Below, in pieces: positions 1-19,140 of a stretch of 20,783 nucleotides of DNA. The stretch covers positions 1-20,783 of the forward strand of contig RDOA01000058.1 of assembly GCA_011364925.1 (NCBI GenBank). Direction: 5' to 3'. How positions within the stretch are numbered: position 1 is the stretch's first letter; each line of letters opens with the position of its first letter. Under the pieces are notes generated by a model. It searched no databases. It was not told where the DNA came from and saw nothing but the letters and a program-made list of their open reading frames with translations. The position numbers and the translations under genes were made by a program. Origin of the DNA: Promethearchaeota archaeon. GTDB lineage: Archaea; Asgardarchaeota; Lokiarchaeia; Sigyniarchaeales; SOKP01.

Positions 1-202
1 CCCCCCTTGTAAAAGGTTCTTGTCCAGGAAAATTAACATTTTCTAAGTAATCTCCTTTGATATCCAATGGAGTATACAATGGTTTTATAGGAATCTCGGA
101 ATCAGTTACAAATTTAACGTCGCGTTCTTTTGTTCCTTTGAACTTTTCTTCCCATTTCTCTTTTTCTTGTTGAATTTTTTCTAAATAATCTTTATCAAAC
201 AA
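1..202 (-). CDS. Methylmalonyl-CoA mutase family, large/N-terminal subunit (5' part only, runs off window)
   Basis: Not in the ORF track. Manual translation from TTG at 202: MFDKDYLEKIQQEKEKWEEKFKGTKERDVKFVTDSEIPIKPLYTPLDIKGDYLENVNFPGQEPFTRG. The T.S.IPIKP.YTP.D...PG..PFTRG pattern is the typical acyl-CoA mutase N-terminus. SD-like GTGTGA at 210-215, 7 nt upstream. Confidence 0.9.
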   Translation of the reverse strand, partial: MFDKDYLEKIQQEKEKWEEKFKGTKERDVKFVTDSEIPIKPLYTPLDIKGDYLENVNFPGQEPFTRG

Positions 203-348: not shown

Positions 349-1263
349 TTAAGGCTCTAATAAATTTGTGAATTCATAAATTATACGATAAACATCCTCA
401 GCAAATTTAGGCTGAAAATCAAAAATCTTTTGGGAACTAAATGTTAGTAATCGAAATTTGACAATGATACTTAAGTGATAATCTACGATATCAAATTGGG
501 GTTTTATCCTGAATATATCTTTTTGGTTGTATTCATTACAAAGCTCTGCCACTTTACTAAGCATAACTCGAAATCCTTTATAGGGAAAAGCCATTCGAAA
601 AGTATAAGTGTATAACTTGGGATAGTATTTTGTTGTAAAGGAGTCGTATGCTTTCTTTAGAGTTCTTTCAAAATTTTTCTTAGATTTATTGAGTTCTTCA
701 TACATTTCTTTGAATCCTATATCTTGCGGGGCTAATATTTTCCTTTTAAAATCTTCAAATGATTTCTTTTTTCCTAGTTTTATAGTATAATTTACGATCT
801 TTGATGAGAGCACTTGAGCATTAGATTTCTCAATAATGATGTTGTCAAAAGTCTCTAGTTTCACTTTGGTTAAATTAACCGCCCGAATTATTCCCTTATC
901 TCCTTCAATTTTAACCAAATCGCCAACTTCAAATGGTCTAACTAACATTATAACTATTCCTGATATGAAGTTTGAAAATATGCCACTTGAAGCGAAAGCT
1001 ATGGCCGTGCTAATTGCTCCCGTGAGTATTGCGGTGTATTCAGGGTTAATTAAAGAGATAATAGGAAAACCTTCAATTATAAAATACGCTATAACAAGAA
1101 CAGTAGCAATTTTTAGAGTAAAATTAATGAGTATCTTTTGTTTTAATGGGAGCTTTTTGAGCTTTCCAAAAATATAAGAAACAAAGTTATTTAATAGATA
1201 TAATCCAACTCCAATTATTACTAAATAGACTAATGCTTCTAGATCTGTATCAAATATCGCTAT
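349..1263 (-). CDS. Small-conductance mechanosensitive channel (MscS family), ~304 aa
   Basis: The track ORF (349-948) starts mid-domain at RPFEVGDLV. The frame is open 105 codons further up through three hydrophobic segments and GAISTAIAFASSGIFSNFISGIVIM (MscS TM3). Best start is ATA at 1263, 7 nt after GAGGTGA (1271-1277). Confidence 0.85.
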   Translation of the reverse strand: MAIFDTDLEALVYLVIIGVGLYLLNNFVSYIFGKLKKLPLKQKILINFTLKIATVLVIAYFIIEGFPIISLINPEYTAILTGAISTAIAFASSGIFSNFISGIVIMLVRPFEVGDLVKIEGDKGIIRAVNLTKVKLETFDNIIIEKSNAQVLSSKIVNYTIKLGKKKSFEDFKRKILAPQDIGFKEMYEELNKSKKNFERTLKKAYDSFTTKYYPKLYTYTFRMAFPYKGFRVMLSKVAELCNEYNQKDIFRIKPQFDIVDYHLSIIVKFRLLTFSSQKIFDFQPKFAEDVYRIIYEFTNLLEP

Positions 1264-2183
1264 TTTTCATTCACCTCTAAGTTATTCCGTGAGTTTGATT
1301 CAGTATTTTCAGTCCAACCATAATTTACCTCTTTCTCATAGATTTTAAAAAGAATATCTCTAATTAAGGGGTCTGTATAGCTTAAAATTAATTTCGGATC
1401 TTTTGTAATAATTTGGATTGTGATACTTAAGCGATATGGAACAGCACTGACTGTAGTATTAGCATAATAATACGGTCTTTGCCCAAAAATTAGTTCATAC
1501 TTGTCAAAAATAGGCTTAAGTAAATCCTTAAGTTTCTCTGAATCAACCGTTTCTAAAAGTTCGACTACTTTAATATATCGAGTAATCTTTTCTTCACCGA
1601 TAATAATTTTTCCAACATGTTTGACAACCTCCGAAATTTCTAATTTTTTCCCTTTTTTAGTGGGTGCGTGAGTATAGCGCACTACTGATGAATTGAATGC
1701 GGTCTTGTTAGGAATATATGTGATAGAACCATCAAAATCGATTAACTTCAGGTTATTTAATGTGATTTCTTTTACTATCCCCTCAGTTCCGTTTGTTTGA
1801 ACTAGATCAGCTACCTCAAAACCTTCTGAGGATAAAAGCATTACTCCAGAGGCAATGTTATTAATGATATTTTGAAAAGTTAAGGATATAGCAACCACCA
1901 GAAACGATATTATAGCTACAAAATAAATTGGCGAAATCATGAATATCAACCAGAATGGGAATACGAGCCATGCTATATTCAAAATAATCTTCAAGAGATA
2001 ACGGACTATCAAATTTTTGATTAAACTTTGAAATACATCGAGTAAGATCGATCTTAAAACATAAGCAACTATATTTAGAAGAATAATATTGAATAATAGC
2101 TGTTCAAAACCAAAATAGTAATAGATTAAAACAAATACCCCTACAAATATTATCCAAATTGCAATTTTATAAATCCTTTTCAT
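1260..2183 (-). CDS. MscS family mechanosensitive channel
   Basis: N-terminal TM helices, then AISLTFQNIINNIASGVMLL..EGFEVADLV..GTEGIVKEITL..DG..TYIPN (MscS TM3 and beta domain). Confidence 0.88.
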   Translation of the reverse strand: MKRIYKIAIWIIFVGVFVLIYYYFGFEQLLFNIILLNIVAYVLRSILLDVFQSLIKNLIVRYLLKIILNIAWLVFPFWLIFMISPIYFVAIISFLVVAISLTFQNIINNIASGVMLLSSEGFEVADLVQTNGTEGIVKEITLNNLKLIDFDGSITYIPNKTAFNSSVVRYTHAPTKKGKKLEISEVVKHVGKIIIGEEKITRYIKVVELLETVDSEKLKDLLKPIFDKYELIFGQRPYYYANTTVSAVPYRLSITIQIITKDPKLILSYTDPLIRDILFKIYEKEVNYGWTENTESNSRNNLEVNEK

Positions 2184-2320
2184 AGAAAATCATTTATCTC
2201 TTCGATTTTTATAAGTTCAGATATAATTTATTACATTAAAAATTAAAGGAAACTTTTTTTTTAAAATTTGGTTAATTAAATTATTAATTAACTCACTCTA
2301 TAACATCTAGGTGAAAATTT

Positions 2321-3415
2321 TTGAAGATATTTTCGAGACACTTAAAAAAAGTAATTCCTCCTAGTAAAAAGAGAAAAGAAGGGGTTGGCCTTCCTCCAGG
2401 AACTCTAATATATACAGGAGATAAAATAAAGGAAAAAACTAAAATTAAGGTAACAGATTATAACGAAGAATTCTATGAATTTCAAGAATTTGAGGACATT
2501 CAGAAAGATCTCACAGCAATTAAGAAAGGAGTAACAAGATGGATCGATATCCACGGTCTTGCTGAAGTAAATGTTATTGAAGAAATTGGTCGTCAGTTTA
2601 ATTTACATCCACTTGTTTTAGAAGATATTTTAAGTACGAACCAACTTCCAAAATTCGAAGATTATGGAAAGTATATTTTTATCATAATGAGAAAATTGAT
2701 TTGGAATGAAGAAGAAGATGAGTTTGACTTTGAACAAACGAGTTTGATTTTAGGAGAAAATTACGTAATTTCACTCCAAGAACGAGACACTAATCTTTTT
2801 GATCCAATATACGAACGAATCCGAGTCCCAAAAGGAAGAGTTCGTTCAATGAAAGCAGATTATCTTTATTATGTTTTAATTGACATTATTGTTGATAATT
2901 ATTTCATCGTATTGGAGAAATTAGGTGAAGAAATAGAAAATATTGAGGATATTTTAATAAAAAGTCCAGATCCAGTAACTTTACAACTCATATATGGATT
3001 AAAGAAGTCTACGATTGAGTTAAGGAAGTCAATATGGCCTATAAGAGAAGTTATCAACAAACTGCAAAGAGAGCAATCGAGTCTACTTGGAGATGAGTTA
3101 CAAATCTATTTAAGAGATATTTATGACCACATCTTTAGAATCTCTGATCTTTTAGAGAATAATCGCGAAATCGTTTTTGGAATGTTAGATATGTATCTCT
3201 CTAGCGTAAGTAATAGAATGAATGACATTATGAAAGTACTTACCATAATTTCAACAATTTTCATTCCTTTATCTTTTCTAGCTGGGTTTTATGGGATGAA
3301 TTTTAAGTATATGCCTGAATTTTCACAGCCCTCAGCATACCCAATTTTAATTATAATAATGATTCTAATTGCCATTGTAATGCTATATTATTTCAGAAGA
3401 AAAAGATGGCTATAA
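2321..3415 (+). CDS. corA: Magnesium/cobalt transporter CorA
   Basis: GLPPGTLIYTG N-terminus, LHPLVLEDIL, YLRDIYDH, and two C-terminal TM helices with the YGMNF signature and MPE loop. TTG start 6 nt after AGGTGA. Confidence 0.96.
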   Translation: MKIFSRHLKKVIPPSKKRKEGVGLPPGTLIYTGDKIKEKTKIKVTDYNEEFYEFQEFEDIQKDLTAIKKGVTRWIDIHGLAEVNVIEEIGRQFNLHPLVLEDILSTNQLPKFEDYGKYIFIIMRKLIWNEEEDEFDFEQTSLILGENYVISLQERDTNLFDPIYERIRVPKGRVRSMKADYLYYVLIDIIVDNYFIVLEKLGEEIENIEDILIKSPDPVTLQLIYGLKKSTIELRKSIWPIREVINKLQREQSSLLGDELQIYLRDIYDHIFRISDLLENNREIVFGMLDMYLSSVSNRMNDIMKVLTIISTIFIPLSFLAGFYGMNFKYMPEFSQPSAYPILIIIMILIAIVMLYYFRRKRWL

Positions 3416-4042
3416 GGTTTGTTTCTCAATATTTTGCCTTAATTGTGAAATTGCCTCTTGAATTGTGTTTATTTCTTTTTCTAATTTAGAACTATCTTCA
3501 TTTAATGATATTAATTGTTTTTCAAGTTGTTTAGATTCTTCTAAGTTTTCATTTTTATCTATAATTTTCAATTTTTCTATAATCTGTTGAACCTTCTCTT
3601 GATTTACTTGGAAAAGATTTCGAACTTTTTCTAATTCTTTTTCTTTTGTTAAAATCTCTTCGAGAACTAATTGTTCTTCTTTCATATCGATTAAATTTTC
3701 AATTTTACTAATATAGCGTCTTATCGCATACAATCTTAATTCCTTGTCTTCTTCTCGTTCGAAAAAGAGAGCTATGTTGCTATCTTCTCCTAATTTTAAG
3801 ATAATAACGGAAATATCTTCAGTTTCGAAAATTAGTTTTCTATAAGGCTCCATTTTATAGTTACAAATTTCATATAAACTTCTGATATGGTTTAAAGTTC
3901 CTGCAAGATTCTCCCCTAATTTAGGGATGTTTATAGACTGTTCAAAAGTCGTTTGGAAGATAGTTCCATTGTTATAAAACATAACAATATGTTTTACTTC
4001 GGGTAAAGCACTTTTTATTCTACTTATATTCTTAAATACCAT
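3410..4042 (-). CDS. Roadblock/LC7 (profilin-like) domain fused to a C-terminal coiled coil
   Basis: The first ~120 aa show the helix, two strands (VKHIVMFYNNGTIF), helix, three strands (KLIFETEDISVIILKLGEDSNIALFF), helix pattern of roadblock folds; the last ~85 aa are E/K/Q-rich heptads. ATG 4042 follows GGAGCGTGA; GTG 4054 is an alternative start. Fold assigned by pattern only. Confidence 0.6.
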   Translation of the reverse strand: MVFKNISRIKSALPEVKHIVMFYNNGTIFQTTFEQSINIPKLGENLAGTLNHIRSLYEICNYKMEPYRKLIFETEDISVIILKLGEDSNIALFFEREEDKELRLYAIRRYISKIENLIDMKEEQLVLEEILTKEKELEKVRNLFQVNQEKVQQIIEKLKIIDKNENLEESKQLEKQLISLNEDSSKLEKEINTIQEAISQLRQNIEKQTL

Positions 4043-4050
4043 CTTTATTT

Positions 4051-5493
4051 TCACGCTCCAAACAATTTTCTAATTCCATTAACTCCTTTTCCTATTCCAA
4101 CTCTTATTCCTTTTGGACCAAGTTTATTAAGTAGATATATCATCAATAAACAAACAGTAATTACTATGACTATTATAATCCCCGTTGAGGTCTCAAAAAT
4201 TAAAGTATAATAAATTGAAACCAGAATTATTTGATAAAGTGTGGTAAGAAAACCAATTTTAAAAAACTGCCGGAAACTAATTGGGCGCTTGTTTGCTTCT
4301 GCTAATTGCACTACAAGGATATTATCGCCTAAAGGAGTCAAATTATCCCCCCAGTTAGCTCCTATTGCCAAGCTATAATAAAATTGTTTTCCCACACTAG
4401 GAAAATTACTCGTTATCGTACTGATTACAGGAATTAACACTTTTGTTATAGGGATATTGTCTATAGCACTACTTAAAAAGGAAGAGAACCACAATATTAT
4501 AAGAATCTGGAAAAATACACTCCCTCCTGATATGTGAGCCATAGATTCTCCTAATACTTGAACTACACCAAGAAGATCCAATGCACCCGCAATAACAAAA
4601 ATTCCTAAAAGATAAAAAATCAATTCAAAATCTATTTTTGAAATTATTTGTCTAGCATCTAGCCTGCTTATGATGATCAGAACAACCGCTACTAGAAGAG
4701 CTAATATATCCGTGCTTATTAGGGATGAGGGAATAATTATAAAAAATGTAAACAAAGCAATCAAGGAAATTAACGATTTGAATAATAACTTCTTATTGGG
4801 AACAAAATTCCAAACGTTAAATTCCATTAAAATAGTGATGCCTTCTTGGGGAACTTGTAAAGATTTCTTGAAGATAAAAATGAACAAAATCAGGGTAAAA
4901 ACGAATATAATCAAAGAGACCGTGCCAACATTTAAAAAGAATTCAACAAAAGAAATGTTGGCATATGTACTTATTAATATATTGGGTATTGATGATATTG
5001 AAAAAAAAGTTCCTCCGATATTAACTAAAATGGCCTGAGTTAAAATATAGGGGGAAGGATTTACGTTTAATATTCTCGAAACAGTGATTGTGAGAGGTAT
5101 GAGGATGATTACTGTAAGAATGTTATTTAAAATTGCAGAAATGACAATGGTTATCAGGCAAAAAATGCTCATTAAATATACCGGTTTACCCTTAGATAAT
5201 TTTATTAAATTTAAAGCTGTGAATTGGAAAAGTCCCGCTTCTTTGGAAATTTCCACAATAAACATCATTCCTATAATTAAAATAAGGGAATGAAGGTTCA
5301 CAAAACCTTCGCTTTGGGATCCAAATAAAAGATCAATTATAACTTTAAAGTCTTTTTTTTCTAAGTAAATCAATACAAAATAAACAATAACGGCTCCGGA
5401 TAATGCTGCTATTGCTCTGTTTAATTTTCCGCTGATAATACATATTATAACCCCTATAAAGCAACCTAAAACAATTAAGATACTAATAATTAT
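4051..5493 (-). CDS. ArsB/NhaD/SLC13 (ion transporter superfamily, P-protein-like) permease, ~480 aa
   Basis: Motifs SAILNN, NIGG..S.IS..PNI, SSAIDNIP, GANWGDNLTPLG; many TM helices. The frame extends 40 codons above the track start and includes a first TM and KLNRAIAALSGA. Probable ATA start at 5493, 7 nt after GAGTGA. Confidence 0.88.
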   Translation of the reverse strand: MIISILIVLGCFIGVIICIISGKLNRAIAALSGAVIVYFVLIYLEKKDFKVIIDLLFGSQSEGFVNLHSLILIIGMMFIVEISKEAGLFQFTALNLIKLSKGKPVYLMSIFCLITIVISAILNNILTVIILIPLTITVSRILNVNPSPYILTQAILVNIGGTFFSISSIPNILISTYANISFVEFFLNVGTVSLIIFVFTLILFIFIFKKSLQVPQEGITILMEFNVWNFVPNKKLLFKSLISLIALFTFFIIIPSSLISTDILALLVAVVLIIISRLDARQIISKIDFELIFYLLGIFVIAGALDLLGVVQVLGESMAHISGGSVFFQILIILWFSSFLSSAIDNIPITKVLIPVISTITSNFPSVGKQFYYSLAIGANWGDNLTPLGDNILVVQLAEANKRPISFRQFFKIGFLTTLYQIILVSIYYTLIFETSTGIIIVIVITVCLLMIYLLNKLGPKGIRVGIGKGVNGIRKLFGA

Positions 5494-5729
5494 AATTACA
5501 TCACTCTAACAATTGAGTATCTATATGAGAATCTAATAAGCATTTATGGCATAAAAAGGTAAATAATTTATAATCTCTTGAAAATATGCCTTGATTTCTA
5601 TGTTATTTGGTTTTTTGCCACTATAAACCAGTAACTTATTTAGTTATATAATTTTAATATAATAACAATTAAAATAAGGTTAGAAACTATTAAAAAAAAT
5701 CCAAGAAGAAAAATAGAACAAGCAAAGAG

Positions 5730-6392
5730 ATGGCTAAAATGGAAGATATTAAAGATATAGAGAGAATAGCCCGAGAAAATTCTGAAATAGCAAAACGAGA
5801 AGAATCAACTGCAAATGACATTAAACTTTTAGCAAAACTAACCATAAGAAGAGCTAAGGCTAGAGAGATGCTCGCTGAGAATGAAGTTGAGCTTTTAAAA
5901 ATACGAGAACATTTAGCGGAGAAGACAAAAAAGTTAATTGAAAAAAAGGAAGAAGTAAAAGTATTATTGAAATTTGGAGATGCTGGATTAAAGATAGAAA
6001 AAATTCAAGCGAATTATAACGAAAGAGTTTCTGAAATTCAAACAGAAATTGCTAAAATTCTTTTAAAGATTGCCGCTATCGAAACTGAAATGGCTGAAAT
6101 AAAGTTAATGCTTGCGAACAGAATTCTTGATGGGGTTAAAAAAAGGAGAAAATTAGCAAAAAAACAGTTGGAATATGCAAAAATGGTAAGTGAGAACGCT
6201 CCTACTGAAAAAGTTTCGAGAGTAAAAGAAGATTATCTTAAAATTCAAAAAGATTTAGCTGATATAGACTCTGACGTCATGGAAATCAATAAAAAAATCA
6301 TAAATAAACAGAATAAGTTAGCTGATTTGAAAAAACAACATTCTGCAAAATTAGGTGAAAGGGAAAAAATTAGACCAATCTTTAATAACTAA
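5730..6392 (+). CDS. All-alpha coiled-coil protein, three long helices (possibly BAR-like)
   Basis: 220 aa, K/E/A-rich, with breaks at FGDAG and SENAP. Ala recurs every 7 residues. The CDS is credible; function is speculative. Confidence 0.75.
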   Translation: MAKMEDIKDIERIARENSEIAKREESTANDIKLLAKLTIRRAKAREMLAENEVELLKIREHLAEKTKKLIEKKEEVKVLLKFGDAGLKIEKIQANYNERVSEIQTEIAKILLKIAAIETEMAEIKLMLANRILDGVKKRRKLAKKQLEYAKMVSENAPTEKVSRVKEDYLKIQKDLADIDSDVMEINKKIINKQNKLADLKKQHSAKLGEREKIRPIFNN

Positions 6393-6475
6393 TTTTAACT
6401 TTTAATTTCCATTCAATTCAAACCATTAATATAATAATAACTTATAGGAACTAGTGGAGAAGTAATAAGAATACG

Positions 6476-6670
6476 ATGAATAATTTTTCTATCTTATTCT
6501 TGGTAATTGTGTTAAGTGGAATCTTAGCAATCGCTTTAATATTAATAGTAAAAATCATCATAGCAGAAATAAGAAAACCTTCAAACGAACAACTCGTCCT
6601 TTTTGGCTTACTTGCGATATTAGTCGTTTTTCTTATCTCATTTATACTAGGGCTGATTCAGATTTTATAA
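6476..6670 (+). CDS. Small two-TM membrane protein, hypothetical
   Basis: 64 aa, two hydrophobic helices joined by a short charged loop (EIRKPSNEQ); GGAG upstream. Confidence 0.65.
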   Translation: MNNFSILFLVIVLSGILAIALILIVKIIIAEIRKPSNEQLVLFGLLAILVVFLISFILGLIQIL

Positions 6671-6717
6671 AGTTATACTATGATTTCTACTATAAAAAGG
6701 AAAAAAATAAAGAAATT

Positions 6718-7467
6718 TTAGTTTTGAAGTTCGTCACGGTATTTAACCAATCTATCAGGCTGGTTTGACATCATTGCGTCGATGTATTTACCATCATATT
6801 TCATAGTAAGTAAATCTTGCATTTTCCTTTTAAAGAGGACCCCCCATACGTAAAATTTGAATCCGAGTTCTTTAACCCTTTTAAAAAGATCAAATGTCAC
6901 AAAGTTGAAGTTAACATTAATTCCTTCAACATTGAGTCTTCTCATATCTTCGATTTCAAGGCATTCGTCTTTAATTTCAGTGTATTTAAGCGGAACGGTA
7001 TTGATTAAAGTAACGTTTTTATCGTATTCTCTAATTTCCGAATAAAATTTGCTTAGGTTATCGGGGTGGATTGAAGGTTTTCCAAGTTCTACACGTTTAA
7101 ATAATCCGTATTCTTTAGCGGTGTCGATGATTTTTATACCAACCTCTGGTTCCATGATATCAACATGATATTTAATGTTATTGTCTTCTAACGCTTCGAA
7201 AACATCTCTAAGGGTGGGAATGGGTTCGTTATTGTCAAGTTTGAACTTTTTAATTTGATCTAATGTTAACTCTCGAATTGGAATTTGTCCACCGTTTAGT
7301 TTAAGAGAATTATAAAAACTTAAAACGACCTCACCTTCTTTTGAGAGTTTCGCTTCAGTTTTTATTCCATCAACACCCATTTCAACTGCATTCTTAAATG
7401 AGGATAGACTATTTTGAGTACCTATAAATCCCGTTCCTCGGTGACCCCATACAAAAGTCTTGTTCAA
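6718..7467 (-). CDS. Glycerophosphodiester phosphodiesterase (GDPD)-fold protein with degenerate active site
   Basis: VWGHRG, NSLSSFKNA..MGVDGI, IPTLRDVF, YVWGV and DAMMSNQPD match the GDPD TIM barrel. TTG 7467 follows GGAGGTG (the track uses GTG 7476). Confidence 0.85.
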   Translation of the reverse strand: MNKTFVWGHRGTGFIGTQNSLSSFKNAVEMGVDGIKTEAKLSKEGEVVLSFYNSLKLNGGQIPIRELTLDQIKKFKLDNNEPIPTLRDVFEALEDNNIKYHVDIMEPEVGIKIIDTAKEYGLFKRVELGKPSIHPDNLSKFYSEIREYDKNVTLINTVPLKYTEIKDECLEIEDMRRLNVEGINVNFNFVTFDLFKRVKELGFKFYVWGVLFKRKMQDLLTMKYDGKYIDAMMSNQPDRLVKYRDELQN

Positions 7468-7468
7468 A

Positions 7469-7999
7469 TTACACACCTCCAGTTTCTTTACTAATTTCTT
7501 TTGCTAATTTAACGAGGTCAAAAAACGCAACAGCATATTGGAGATCACCTTCAATCTTAAGATTCCCACTTAGAAATTCTGCAAAGGGTTCAAAACTTCC
7601 TTTAAAAATTTGAATCATTGTTTTTTGAGTACAAATTACTGTGAATGTTGGATTATCTTTTTCTCCTTTATCGCATAAGTAAACTCCATTTCCAAATTCA
7701 ACCCAGAAATTAAAATCAGAGTTTAAAATTTTGCCTTGAAAAGTTTTTATTTTAAAATAATCCAGTTCTTCTTTGAATTCTTCGTTTTCTAAGGCTAATT
7801 TCTCAATAGATTTGTTTAATTTCATAATTTTTCTCTTAGTACAACAATTCTCACATAGAAATTCATTAATCGAAATAACTCCACAATGTTCCATATAACA
7901 TTCTATTTGATTAGTTTCACCGTTAACAGTAATACTATGAGCACATTTTAATGGTAACGTTTCTATTTCGTTTCCACAACCACTGCATATTAAACTAAT
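7469..7999 (-). CDS. Cys-rich putative Zn-binding domain fused to an SCP2 lipid-carrier domain, ~176 aa
   Basis: C-terminal SCP2 signature (PTFTV...F.G...P...FLSGNLKIEGDL..A). The frame is open 35 codons above the track ATG and adds a CSGC motif. Probable ATT start at 7999 after AGGTG (8008-8012). Confidence 0.8.
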   Translation of the reverse strand: MSLICSGCGNEIETLPLKCAHSITVNGETNQIECYMEHCGVISINEFLCENCCTKRKIMKLNKSIEKLALENEEFKEELDYFKIKTFQGKILNSDFNFWVEFGNGVYLCDKGEKDNPTFTVICTQKTMIQIFKGSFEPFAEFLSGNLKIEGDLQYAVAFFDLVKLAKEISKETGGV

Positions 8000-8186
8000 T
8001 TTGAAAACACCTTTTCGTTGAATTATAATTCGTACGATTACAAAAGATAGCTAATACAGTTATTAAAAGTGTGGGCTTAGAAATATAATGTTTTAAACTG
8101 TTATGACTATTAGTTTGGTGTAAAATTCTAAAAAAATTTTTAGAATGTAAAAAATCCCTAAATTTAGGGTGAAAAGGATTGTAGGG

Positions 8187-8696
8187 TTATTCTCGAATGA
8201 ACTTCAATACTTCTTTCATAAAGTCTGGTAGATCATCTGGAGTTCTTGATGTTATCAAATTTCCATCAACTACTACCGATAAATCTTCAAATTTTGCCCC
8301 CGCATTAATCATATCGTCTTTGATCGCAAAATAACTTGTCGCTCTTTTTTCTTTTATGACCTTTGAGGATATCAATACCCATCCTGCGTGACAGATTGCC
8401 CCTACGAGTTTGTGTTGTTGGTCAATTGTATGTACGAAATTAAGGATATCTTTATTTCTTCTTAAGTGATCAGGATTTTTAGTTCCTCCCGGAATGATTA
8501 CGCCATCGTAATCATTGGCGCTTACTTCGTCTATTCGAAAAGTAGGTTTTATTTCGTACCCAAATTTCCCACTAATTGGTCTTCTACCGAGACTAATAAT
8601 AACACTCTCGTGACCAGCTTCTTTTAATCGATAAAAGGGGTAAAGAAGTTCTGCTTCCTCAAATCCATCTGTAGCTATAATTGCTATTTTTGCCAA
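8187..8696 (-). CDS. pfpI: PfpI/DJ-1 family protein (type 1 glutamine amidotransferase-like protease/deglycase)
   Basis: DGFEEAEL, YDGVIIPGG, AICHAG nucleophile elbow, VVVDGNLITSRTPDDLPDF. Start is TTG 8696 or TTG 8714. Confidence 0.93.
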   Translation of the reverse strand: MAKIAIIATDGFEEAELLYPFYRLKEAGHESVIISLGRRPISGKFGYEIKPTFRIDEVSANDYDGVIIPGGTKNPDHLRRNKDILNFVHTIDQQHKLVGAICHAGWVLISSKVIKEKRATSYFAIKDDMINAGAKFEDLSVVVDGNLITSRTPDDLPDFMKEVLKFIRE

Positions 8697-13632: not shown

Positions 13633-14439
13633 TTGAAAATATTTGTTTGTGTGAAACAAGTACCAGGCGTATCAGAGATAAAAATAGATCCAAAAACAAA
13701 TACGCTTGTAAGAGAGGGGGTTGAATCCGTAATAAATCCCAACGATCGAAATGCCATTGAATTAGCTTTAACACTTAAAGAAAAGCATGGCGCAGAAGTT
13801 TTAGTTCTTAGTATGGGACCTCCTCAGGCAGAGGAAATACTACGGGAAAGTATAGCAATGGGAGCAGACAAAGGTTTTTTATTAACGGATAGAGCTTTTG
13901 CTGGTGCAGACACGCTTGCAACATCCTATACTCTATCATTAGCAATTAAAAAGATACTAAAAGAATCAGATCCTGAGGAAAAATATCTTGTTATATGTGG
14001 AGCTCAAGCAATTGATGGAGATACAGGACAAGTTCCACCAGAGTTAGCTGAAGAATTAGGAATTCCACAAATTGCGTACGTTTTGAGTATAGAATTAAAC
14101 GAGGATAAAATTGTAGCTGAAAGGAAATTCAGAGCTGTAGAAATAGTAGTAATTGAAACTAAACTTCCAGCACTAATATCAGTTTTAAATGACATCAATA
14201 AACCTAGATATCCTAGTATGGCAGGAATATTGAAAGCTCACGACAATTCAAAAATCACATATTATAACGCCCAAGATTTAAATGCTGACGAGGCGAAAAT
14301 TGGATTAAATGGGTCAAGTACTGAGGTTTGGAAGATTTTTGCCCCCGAGAGAAAGGGTAACCGCGTTATTTTAAGAGGAACCCTAGAAGAAATTGTCCAG
14401 CAATTATGTCAAAATTTAAAAGATGACAAAATTCTTTAG
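13633..14439 (+). CDS. etfB: Electron transfer flavoprotein beta subunit
   Basis: VCVKQVP, INPND..AIE, SMGP, DRAFAGADTLATS, QAIDGDTGQV, PRYPS. TTG start after GAGGA. Confidence 0.95.
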   Translation: MKIFVCVKQVPGVSEIKIDPKTNTLVREGVESVINPNDRNAIELALTLKEKHGAEVLVLSMGPPQAEEILRESIAMGADKGFLLTDRAFAGADTLATSYTLSLAIKKILKESDPEEKYLVICGAQAIDGDTGQVPPELAEELGIPQIAYVLSIELNEDKIVAERKFRAVEIVVIETKLPALISVLNDINKPRYPSMAGILKAHDNSKITYYNAQDLNADEAKIGLNGSSTEVWKIFAPERKGNRVILRGTLEEIVQQLCQNLKDDKIL

Positions 14440-15655: not shown

Positions 15656-16217
15656 CTTTTAGAGAAAAAAAGATGTGAAAATCAAAACCGTCTAAATTCT
15701 CCAACTGTGGGCAGTAATACTTTTTTTAAATACTACGAAATTGTGATCTCTGAATAAGAGTTCAAAAAATAATAATTATAATTAAAGAGAAGGTAGTAGA
15801 ATAGAAAAAAAAAGTAATGGAATGCTAGTTTTTTTAGCGGGAAAAACTCATTCGTGGAGGAATAAATTATGGGCTAAAATCAAAACATTCCACTACAAGA
15901 TAGAAAATCGAAATTTTCTAACATAATATAGATTTTTTAGAATTTAAATTTATCGTTAATCGGCTAAATTTAGAAACGCTCTATTTGAATATTCAATAAA
16001 ATAGGATGATAATAGAATATTTGAAATATCATATCTCTTACTTTTATCGTATAATCGTAGATGCCCAAATAAATGCGAATATAACGCATAGATTTAATTA
16101 AAAAACAAAATTTTTCTTGAATTTCTTCAGACCTAATTCATTTTTTTCACACAATTTTAACCAGATTTAGGTGAAAAATTTTTAATCGATATGCAACTAG
16201 TAAACCAAAATCCGAAT

Positions 16218-16235
16218 TTATTAAGATCTTAATAA
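16218..16235. promoter_or_regulatory. Perfect 18-bp palindrome, possible operator
   Basis: TTATTAAGATCTTAATAA in the etfA-iorB gap. Confidence 0.35.
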
Positions 16236-16623
16236 GCATTAATTCTTTATTTAAAGTATGTTGAGTAGCTTATCTTAAAAATTATTGAGAATAGATGCAA
16301 AATTGAGATGAAAATATCCAAATAATTGCTAATTAGGTTTAGTAAATAACTTAAATTTGATTTAATCACCACATTTTCTTTCTTTCTACATCAAACTTCT
16401 TTATTTTTTTCGAGAGCTCAGTAAAAATTTGAACTAGTTAAATCCAATTTATTTTTCTAATTACTTTTTTTTGTCCTAATTCTCTGAATCCACATTTGGA
16501 AAATATATGTAGCTTCCCATTTTCTTCCCATTATCAACTTAAGGGAATAATTTAATTAAATTTAAGAGATTAAGAAAAACTAAAGAGAATATTATAAAAC
16601 CTATTTCTTAATGATATCTAATC

Positions 16624-17235: not shown

Positions 17236-19140
17236 ATGAGTAGACCAGATTTTGCAAGCGAACAGGTTGGAATGAAAGTTATAATGTTAGGAAACGAGGC
17301 TATAGCTAGGGGACTTTTAGAAGCAGGACTAGTTATTGGTGCGGGGTACCCAGGAACTCCGTCGTCTGAAATTCTTCCAACTTTAGCAGAGATGCAAAAA
17401 TATTTCCCTCATCTTAAATTAGAATGGAGTGTGAACGAAAAAGTAGGTTTTGAAGTTGCTTACGGAGGATCAATGTCAAATGTGCGTTCCGTTGCAGTTA
17501 TGAAGCATGTAGGAGTAAATGTAGCTTCAGATGCTTTTATGACTGCTTGTTATGCGGGAGCGAGAGGTGGGATGGTCCTAATTTCAGCAGATGATCCTAA
17601 TTGCTATTCCTCCCAAAATGAACAAGATAATCGATATTTTGGGTTACACGCGTTAGTTCCTGTGTTTGAACCCTCTACGCCTCAGGAAGCAAAGGATATG
17701 ATTAAATACGCGTTTGATTTTTCCGAAGAATACCAATCTTTAGTTTTGTTTCGCACTACGACCAGATTAAACCACGGTAGAGGGGACGTGGTTCTTGGAA
17801 ATGTCAACATTCAAAACCGTGATACTGGTTTTGATTGGGATCGTTCTCGATGGGTATGCTTGCCATCACACTCAAGAGTATTGCGAATGAGGTTATTGGA
17901 AAGACTAGACGATATTTCCGAGTTTGCTGACGATTTTCCATTTAATTCGATACAATTATCAGGAGAAAGAGTAAATGGCGTTCGATATGGATTTGTAGCA
18001 GCGGGAGTCCCGTACTCTCAACTTTTGGACGCGCTTAATTTTTATGGGATTAGGAAAAAAGTATCAATCTTAAAACTCGGTTTAGTGTATCCTCCTCCTA
18101 AAAAATTAATTAAAAAATTATTCGATTCTTGTGACGAAATCGTAGTTGTCGAGGAATTAGAGCCTTTTATAGAAAACATTTTAAAACAAAACGCATTTGA
18201 AGAAGGTTTTTCCAAAGAAATCAAAATACATGGAAAAGATATTTTTCCACAAAATGGAGAGTTTGCAGGGGAAATTTATTTAGAAAATGTGGCTCGTTTA
18301 ATGGGATTTTCCTATAAGACGGTTCCTGTTCCTGACAGCATGATGATTATTCCACCGAGATTGCCTATTTTATGCCCTGGATGCGGTCATAGAGCGACTT
18401 TTTACGCGATAAAACAGGTTGAAAAGAAGATGAAAACGAAATTCGTTAATTCTTCAGATATAGGTTGTTATACATTAGCTGTATACAAACCTTTAGAAGG
18501 AATTGATACAGAAGTTTGTATGGGAGGTTCGATTGGTTTAGCAAACGGTATAGCAAAAGTACAGAGCAAAGAAAATCCCGTTCTAGCAATCTTAGGAGAC
18601 TCCACTTTCTTTCATTCTGGAATTCCCGCCTTGATTAACGCAGTTTTCAATAAAAACAATATATTGGTAGTAATACTAGACAATCGATCGACGAGTATGA
18701 CTGGGTTTCAAGATAATCCAGGTACAGGTGTTACGATTACAAACGAACCGGGTGTTCGCGTAGTATTGGAGGATCTTGTTAAAGGTTGTGGTGTTTCTGC
18801 TGATAAAATTTGGGTAGAAGATGCAAACGATTTGAATAAAACTGTAGAAAAATTAGAAGAAGCAGTTAAAGCTGAAGGTGTCCGCGTTTTCATCTCACGG
18901 CATTTATGTTCGTTACTCGAATCGAACCAATTTCGAGCTCAACAAATTACCCCTCCAACCATAGATGTTAACCCTGAAAAATGCACTGGATGTTTAATAT
19001 GCGTCAATAAATTTGGCTGTCAAGCGCTAAATTATGACGAGGAGAGTAGAAAAGTGTCAATTGAACAATCTGTTTGCAGGGGGTGCAAAGTATGCATTGA
19101 TGTATGCTCTCAAAACGCAATTTATGAGGTAGATGCTTAA
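17236..19140 (+). CDS. iorA: Indolepyruvate:ferredoxin oxidoreductase alpha subunit
   Basis: GNEAIARG, YPGTPSSEI, NEKV, MKHVG.NVA.D, SSQNEQD, LCPGCGHR, DIGC, GDSTFFHSG..DN (TPP motif), C-terminal ferredoxin. Confidence 0.96.
   Translation: MSRPDFASEQVGMKVIMLGNEAIARGLLEAGLVIGAGYPGTPSSEILPTLAEMQKYFPHLKLEWSVNEKVGFEVAYGGSMSNVRSVAVMKHVGVNVASDAFMTACYAGARGGMVLISADDPNCYSSQNEQDNRYFGLHALVPVFEPSTPQEAKDMIKYAFDFSEEYQSLVLFRTTTRLNHGRGDVVLGNVNIQNRDTGFDWDRSRWVCLPSHSRVLRMRLLERLDDISEFADDFPFNSIQLSGERVNGVRYGFVAAGVPYSQLLDALNFYGIRKKVSILKLGLVYPPPKKLIKKLFDSCDEIVVVEELEPFIENILKQNAFEEGFSKEIKIHGKDIFPQNGEFAGEIYLENVARLMGFSYKTVPVPDSMMIIPPRLPILCPGCGHRATFYAIKQVEKKMKTKFVNSSDIGCYTLAVYKPLEGIDTEVCMGGSIGLANGIAKVQSKENPVLAILGDSTFFHSGIPALINAVFNKNNILVVILDNRSTSMTGFQDNPGTGVTITNEPGVRVVLEDLVKGCGVSADKIWVEDANDLNKTVEKLEEAVKAEGVRVFISRHLCSLLESNQFRAQQITPPTIDVNPEKCTGCLICVNKFGCQALNYDEESRKVSIEQSVCRGCKVCIDVCSQNAIYEVDA

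Follow-up and report, generated by a model that had tools for sequence, protein, structure and literature searches.

The window analysed here, a 20,783-nucleotide stretch of Promethearchaeota DNA, carries three minus-strand genes whose reading frames appear to begin at ATA or ATT (together with ATC, ATH codons) behind a Shine–Dalgarno (SD) motif. It is contig C69 of a 3.92-Mb assembly with 33% GC, and one of its proteins is 75–91% identical to proteins of Promethearchaeota (Lokiarchaeia) metagenome-assembled genomes, including Loki_b31 and E44_bin85; the group is presumably a SOKP01-like genus. The three genes encode an MscS-family channel of 304 amino acids, the second of a tandem pair (mscS-2, 349..1263, start ATA 1263–1261; Pfam PF00924), a CitMHS/ArsB-like permease of the ion-transporter superfamily of 480 amino acids (4051..5493, start ATA 5493–5491; PF03600) and a 176-amino-acid protein with a Cys-rich N-terminal domain followed by an SCP2 domain (7469..7999, start ATT 7999–7997; PF02036). 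A preliminary description of this DNA, made from its letters, had proposed these starts, and every number it gave for the frames, in-frame stops, distances to canonical codons and SD spacings was reproduced.

In mscS-2, an in-frame TGA (1269–1267) lies two codons above the ATA, and the first canonical codon, an ATG at 948, comes 105 codons later. Its SD, GAGGTGA (1271..1277), sits within the last codons of the upstream paralogue mscS-1 (1260..2183, minus strand, ATG start) and forms a duplex of −11.7 kcal/mol with the genome's own 16S tail. The TAG of mscS-1 overlaps the ATA as ATAG, which has the geometry of an ATGA stop/start overlap, and we infer translational coupling of the two genes across it. 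The two MscS paralogues (349–2183) are 28% identical; most of the class's genomes that were searched have the pair, which may form a heteromeric channel. The permease gene has an in-frame TAG at 5508–5506, a first canonical codon, TTG, at 5373 (40 codons in) and the SD GAGTGA (5501..5506; −6.1 kcal/mol), for which the closest orthologue, G036, has the equivalent of GGTGAT ahead of ATG; ATT codons stand on both sides of its ATA, and the orthologue column favours ATA 5493. For the SCP2 gene, the stop is a TAG at 8053–8051, the first canonical codon an ATG at 7894 (35 codons in) and the SD AGGTG (8008..8012; −6.5 kcal/mol), with GGTG at the same place in six of six orthologues. None of the three genes has an ATG, GTG or TTG between the in-frame stop and the conserved N terminus. 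In all of them, as in the methylmalonyl-CoA mutase gene whose 5′ end lies at 2..202 (minus strand, TTG 202–200; PF01642), the GTG of the SD ends 8 nt before the start codon. This register had been described as fixed; it holds for these four genes, but genome-wide the spacing is 5–10 nt for canonical starts and peaks at 6–8 nt for ATH starts.

As had also been argued, the extensions upstream of the canonical codons hold parts that the proteins need or plausibly need. The MscS extension contains the hydrophobic segments 10–28 and 54–72, the third segment (88–106) minus its last residue, and the start of the Pfam beta-domain. That of the permease contains the first two hydrophobic segments and the start of the Pfam CitMHS domain, which begins upstream of the first TTG, and that of the SCP2 protein carries a CxxC conserved in all six orthologues. 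The SCP2 N-terminal domain as a whole is Cys/His-rich (CxxC ... CxH ... C ... C ... CxxCC) and matches nothing in Pfam or NCBIfam; in three relatives the SCP2 part occurs on its own.

Orthologue alignment revealed that ATG swaps with ATA and ATT at these positions, so that the comparison proposed in the preliminary description came out in its favour. The frames are intact, with 61–84% identity to close orthologues, and conservation starts at the ATH column and drops upstream of it. In 11 close MscS orthologues (70–79% identical), the start codon, in the column itself or one codon earlier, is ATG in six, TTG in three and ATA in two; in a distant clade (40–47% identical), the column is ATA in 13 genomes and ATG in one. 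Seventeen permease orthologues have ATG (8), TTG (5), GTG (1) or ATT (3), the ATT of G006 standing right after an in-frame TAA. The six SCP2 orthologues have ATG (5) or TTG (1), twice immediately after a stop. A further swap touches another gene of the window, the oxidoreductase at 17236–19140, which starts with ATG here and has ACG at that column behind GGAGG in an orthologue (G014, contig C233).

Across the genome, we assigned starts in 3,117 frames with a model combining coding likelihood, an SD matrix and spacing, and a start-codon prior that gave equal weight to each of the 58 non-canonical sense codons. The model called ATG in 72.2% of genes, TTG in 11.7%, ATT in 5.3%, GTG in 3.9%, ATA in 3.5%, ATC in 1.3%, AAA in 0.8%, CTG in 0.3% and ACG in 0.2%. 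The probability of a non-canonical start exceeded 0.9 in 136 genes, 123 of them with ATH, and all three window genes are in this set (above 0.999 for mscS-2). When starts were randomised in 172 genes as a null simulation, the model picked AAA or GAA rather than ATH. Among 47 frames with coding-like extensions, selected without SD or codon information, ATH accounted for 22 of 41 in-frame codons lying 5–9 nt behind an SD and for 16 of 93 elsewhere (P = 5e-5). Strong ATH calls had ATG, TTG or GTG in the orthologue in 35 of 88 pairs, most of them supplied by few genes, compared with 2.9% at internal Ile codons. Samples of equal size, visibly noisy, gave ATH shares of 7.0, 3.7 and 6.0% for three from the genus, against 0.8% for C. 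difficile (29% GC). Orthologue pairs read by eye gave some twelve clear cases among ~300 genes, which sets the floor at around 4%; the pair screen used a gene filter against antisense frames. We put the ATH share of genes in this genome and genus at roughly 4–10%, a model-dependent estimate. A raw tally of SD-anchored codons over all genes had ATG, TTG and GTG peaks and only a weak ATA bump, and the ATH signal required conditioning on frames without a canonical codon. The three cases within 8 kb, which had seemed unusual, are only mildly above the genome's own rate (P = 0.03–0.07 for 3 of 10 genes at a 7–10% ATH rate, 0.18–0.35 for 3 of 21 genes), and the extrapolation of non-canonical starts to the lineage was borne out by the start model, the orthologue pairs and the genes for uS4, uS8 and aIF1 described below.

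Core genes are among those affected. uS4 begins MGDP throughout the class. This genome and 11 relatives have ATC in the Met column, and the in-frame TGA that precedes it by two or three codons forms part of the SD; in other genomes the column is ATG (17), TTG (1) or ATA (1). For uS8, three genomes have ATA at the start column and six have GTG, TTG or ATG; uL6 has ATA in G032. For uL15, this genome has ACG in the column where orthologues have ATG, the model's ATA call being probably one codon early. PheT starts with ATA here and ATT in a relative, G017, and GatB with CTG here and ATG in the same relative. RadA and eS26, recognised from their translations, are further non-canonical calls of the start model.

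The gene for the initiation factor aIF1 (SUI1; C86:10208–10537, plus strand) belongs to the same class. It has ATT four codons behind an in-frame TGA, and its zinc knuckle (PMC6237735) is encoded upstream of any canonical codon. All 12 main copies in the genus share this ATT, and the frame in G032 is without any ATG, GTG or TTG. Four genomes (G005, G007, G026 and G033) hold a divergent copy, 56–63% identical, that also has ATT at that column. Outside the genus, a phylum-wide survey, from which 6 of 30 loci were left out as mis-framed, found ATA in families f2 (G042), f5, f7, f14 and f20, CTG in f9 and canonical codons in the rest. Start models built on 400-kb samples of other families were too noisy to measure ATH use (ATA 2.2% but AAA 7.3% in G044; ATA 1.2% in G055), so it is aIF1 that carries the breadth of these starts outside the genus; the ribosomal-operon genes and uS4 are canonical in those families.

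The 16S tail, found on contig C86, reads GATCACCTCCT, so that the matching SD is AGGAGGTGATC. SD-anchored starts of the GGTGA type at 5–10 nt are plain genome-wide. Median duplex energies were −7.9 kcal/mol for ATH calls, −6.3 for TTG/GTG and −3.7 for ATG, a comparison that is partly circular. A duplex of −6 kcal/mol or stronger preceded 26% of ATG, 55% of TTG/GTG and 76% of ATH calls, raw shares uncorrected for a shuffled background. The anticodon arm of the initiator-type tRNA reads GGGCTCATAACCC, with a CAT anticodon, and no second initiator anticodon was found, although intron-rich tRNAs may be missed. This tRNA-Met lies on contig C44 (minus strand) and has A1, a GGG/CCC anticodon stem and an apparent insert 3′ of the anticodon arm; ARAGORN missed it and most other tRNAs because of introns, so the tRNA census is incomplete. 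Neither a non-CAU initiator anticodon nor a reading of AUA as Met was detected, and only 1.3% of internal ATH codons are aligned with an ATG. We propose that SD pairing would place the codon in the P site of the 30S subunit, where ordinary Met-tRNAi (anticodon CAU) could pair with its first two bases and tolerate a third-base mismatch, and that aIF1 proofreading would be permissive enough for even ribosomal proteins to be made this way. Because Met-tRNAi would decode the ATH start, the first residue is predicted to be Met, not Ile. The order of codons in this genome, ATT > ATA > ATC >> CTG, ACG with no AAG or AGG, matches that of codons known to initiate weakly in bacteria (PMC5499595).

On these grounds we estimate at about 90% the probability that translation of the three genes, all intact, begins at ATA, ATA and ATT, as local cases of genus-wide AUU, AUA and AUC (rarely CUG and ACG) starts in 4–10% of genes. 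ATG, TTG, GTG, ATA and ATT sharing one column among orthologues leaves next to no room for sequencing error, pseudogenes or downstream starts, the three findings that the preliminary description had named as refuting it. That the ATH codons reflect G-to-A or indel errors, or decay of the genes, is extremely improbable: the genome is a metagenome assembly and the SCP2 ATT occurs only in this genome among seven, but the same ATH codons turn up in other, independent genomes (15 for the MscS ATA, 3 for the permease ATT, 11 for the uS4 ATC and 11 for the aIF1 ATT), the reading frames are unbroken, and the affected genes include several that are essential and present in single copy. We give equally little weight to translation from the downstream canonical codons, as annotated. 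The NCBI form of the SCP2 protein does have 141 amino acids, from the downstream ATG, but that form comes from a gene caller; the conserved stretch sets in at the ATH column, and truncation would cost MscS its membrane segments, the permease its first two segments, SCP2 its CxxC and aIF1 its zinc knuckle, while the G032 aIF1 frame has no canonical codon to offer. Initiation at an out-of-frame ATG followed by slippage into the gene would draw on the ATGAAAAATA before mscS-2, common to several members of the distant clade, and the ATG-TAA before the permease. These ATGs abut the SD (0–1 nt), however, and GGTGAT yields ATG by chance. The out-of-frame ATG next to the MscS SD is absent from G021, G015, G020, G022, G035 and G036, which keep ATA, and no such ATG precedes SCP2, uS4 or aIF1, which makes slippage very unlikely. 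No more credible is a route by which mRNA editing or a special initiator tRNA makes ATH cognate: A-to-I editing might, in principle, give AUA the value of AUG, but it offers no account of ATT and ATC, which are commoner than ATA, or of CTG and ACG, and the sole initiator-type anticodon arm found reads CAT, with the same caveat about intron-rich tRNAs.

Harder to separate is an explanation that competes with relaxed stringency and not with the start positions, namely that fidelity is that of a normal archaeon and that ATH starts are weak (about 1–30% of AUG, as in bacteria), tolerated through slow growth or used to damp expression, with a strong SD in compensation. ATH-called starts do have the strongest SDs, albeit in a partly circular comparison, ATG still begins 72% of genes, and in S. 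aureus AUU and AUA behind extended SDs yield about 10–30% of AUG output (PMC13009471). By contrast, stoichiometric ribosomal proteins (uS4, uS8, uL15 and eS26) and PheT use ATH or near-cognate starts, the same gene swaps ATG, TTG and ATH within one genus in what looks like a near-neutral manner, and AUA competed about equally with AUG in E. coli extracts (PMC5499595). We regard tolerated weak initiation as a serious possibility that nonetheless falls well short of an even chance; relaxed stringency may instead mean efficient initiation.

A low stringency might be set through aIF1 itself. Sulfolobus aIF1 rejects AUU in vitro, and a weak start is the means of autoregulation for bacterial IF3 (infC, AUU) and for eukaryotic eIF1 (poor AUG context) (PMC4705826); together, these make a feedback loop a natural reading of the conserved aIF1 start, and a loop like those of infC and eIF1 is plausible. 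In its full form, this proposal would have Lokiarchaeia combine genome-wide low start stringency with a set point held by negative feedback of aIF1 through its own AUU/AUA start, so that several hundred AUH-started genes would be co-regulated in the archaea nearest the eukaryotes; our analysis gives it slightly under an even chance. Several points weigh against the main reading, translation from ATH codons under permissive aIF1 proofreading. The rejection of AUU by the Sulfolobus factor (PMC4705826) is one, and the Loki aIF1 alignment shows no obvious lesion. The ATH share is model-dependent and 400-kb estimates are noisy; without its SD term, the start model cannot separate ATH from AAA; and the list of strong calls holds false positives (an intron-split aIF2-gamma, a split GTPase and a few antisense frames).

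In the first two of these false positives, an insert interrupts the gene. That for aIF2-gamma is found on the minus strand of contig C53 of this genome, directly upstream of 19139 and not in the window; its P-loop Lys codon is broken by a 29-nt insert whose removal restores GHVDHGKTT and whose flanks fit a bulge-helix-bulge by eye, making it a candidate mRNA intron. Profile matches to aIF2-gamma begin at position 18–19 in five more genomes of the genus, one of which has an in-frame TAG insert. Introns of this kind can mimic non-canonical starts. The small-GTPase gene reads through in G017 and G015, but in this genome (contig C35, minus strand, near 40690) an insert containing in-frame stops splits it; this may be a further short intron, or else a lesion.

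Elsewhere in the window, TTG starts had been listed for five genes. Beside the mutase TTG in its 8-nt register, those of corA (2321..3415, plus strand, behind AGGTGA), a GDPD-family gene (6718..7467, minus strand, behind GGAGGTG), the DJ-1/PfpI gene pfpI (8187..8696, minus strand) and an etfB-like gene (13633..14439, plus strand) are all the best calls of the start model, at 2321, 7467, 8696 and 13633, respectively. The first three were assigned by family scan, and the etfB-like gene was named from its translation. Between etfA and an indolepyruvate-oxidoreductase-like operon lies about 1 kb of AT-rich DNA (15656–16614) without a frame of 70 amino acids.

These starts bear on how Asgard genomes are read. 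Asgard proteomes come almost wholly from gene callers that allow only ATG, GTG and TTG, so 4–10% of this genus's proteins would be cut short or overlooked, with membrane anchors, metal sites and ribosomal proteins among the losses; claims on eukaryote origins that concern presence, absence or domain architecture rest on such gene calls. The expected truncation by annotation was shown for SCP2 by its 141-amino-acid NCBI form, whereas exact look-ups of the truncated MscS and permease forms gave no match. Asgard archaea are close prokaryotic relatives of eukaryotes, and permissive, SD-driven start selection would here go with an aIF1/aIF1A/aIF2 core homologous to that of strict eukaryotic initiation. 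The starts also offer a simple test of fidelity-factor autoregulation in the third domain.

Animal mitochondria use ATH starts, and a modified tRNA-Met reads AUA there. Annotated AUU and AUC starts are also found in Mycoplasma gallisepticum (PMC5499595). Both are, like the present case, AT-rich genomes with frequent ATH initiation, but they are reduced genomes with bacterial-type machinery, whereas the archaeon described here is free-living, has a 3.9-Mb genome and uses the standard code. With standard archaeal initiation, the genus shares SD pairing with the AUCACCUCCU tail, frequent TTG and GTG starts and a CAU initiator tRNA. The regular archaeal starts are AUG, GUG and UUG, with AUH not listed among them (PMC7531240), and in Haloferax, ribosome profiling found near-cognate putative alternative sites that were set aside as possible false positives (PMC7261190). 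Reviews have called SDs rare in Lokiarchaea (PMC12993045, PMC7531240), in contrast to the clear SD-anchored starts of this genome. In the literature searched, outside which most subscription papers fall, we found no report of ATH starts in Asgard archaea, and none in the literature searched of aIF1 autoregulation in archaea. Similar to infC and eIF1, aIF1 is a fidelity-factor gene that itself has a conserved weak start; the feedback is proven in bacteria and eukaryotes, whereas for aIF1 it is a prediction, and other Asgard aIF1 genes start with ATG, GTG or TTG. The closest parallel is bacterial: infC and pcnB of E. coli start with AUU (PMC5499595), and in S. aureus infC, ccpN and citZ start with AUA and cvfC1 with AUU (PMC13009471), behind strong SDs, conserved between species and without a canonical alternative, as here. 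Those are two to four genes per genome, and each near-cognate codon accounts for 0.004–0.024% of annotated bacterial starts (PMC5499595), compared with 4–10% of genes here, ribosomal proteins included, in an archaeon with aIF1 and aIF2. What sets this genus apart is that an archaeon uses a known chemistry far more often than bacteria do, and uses it in core genes.

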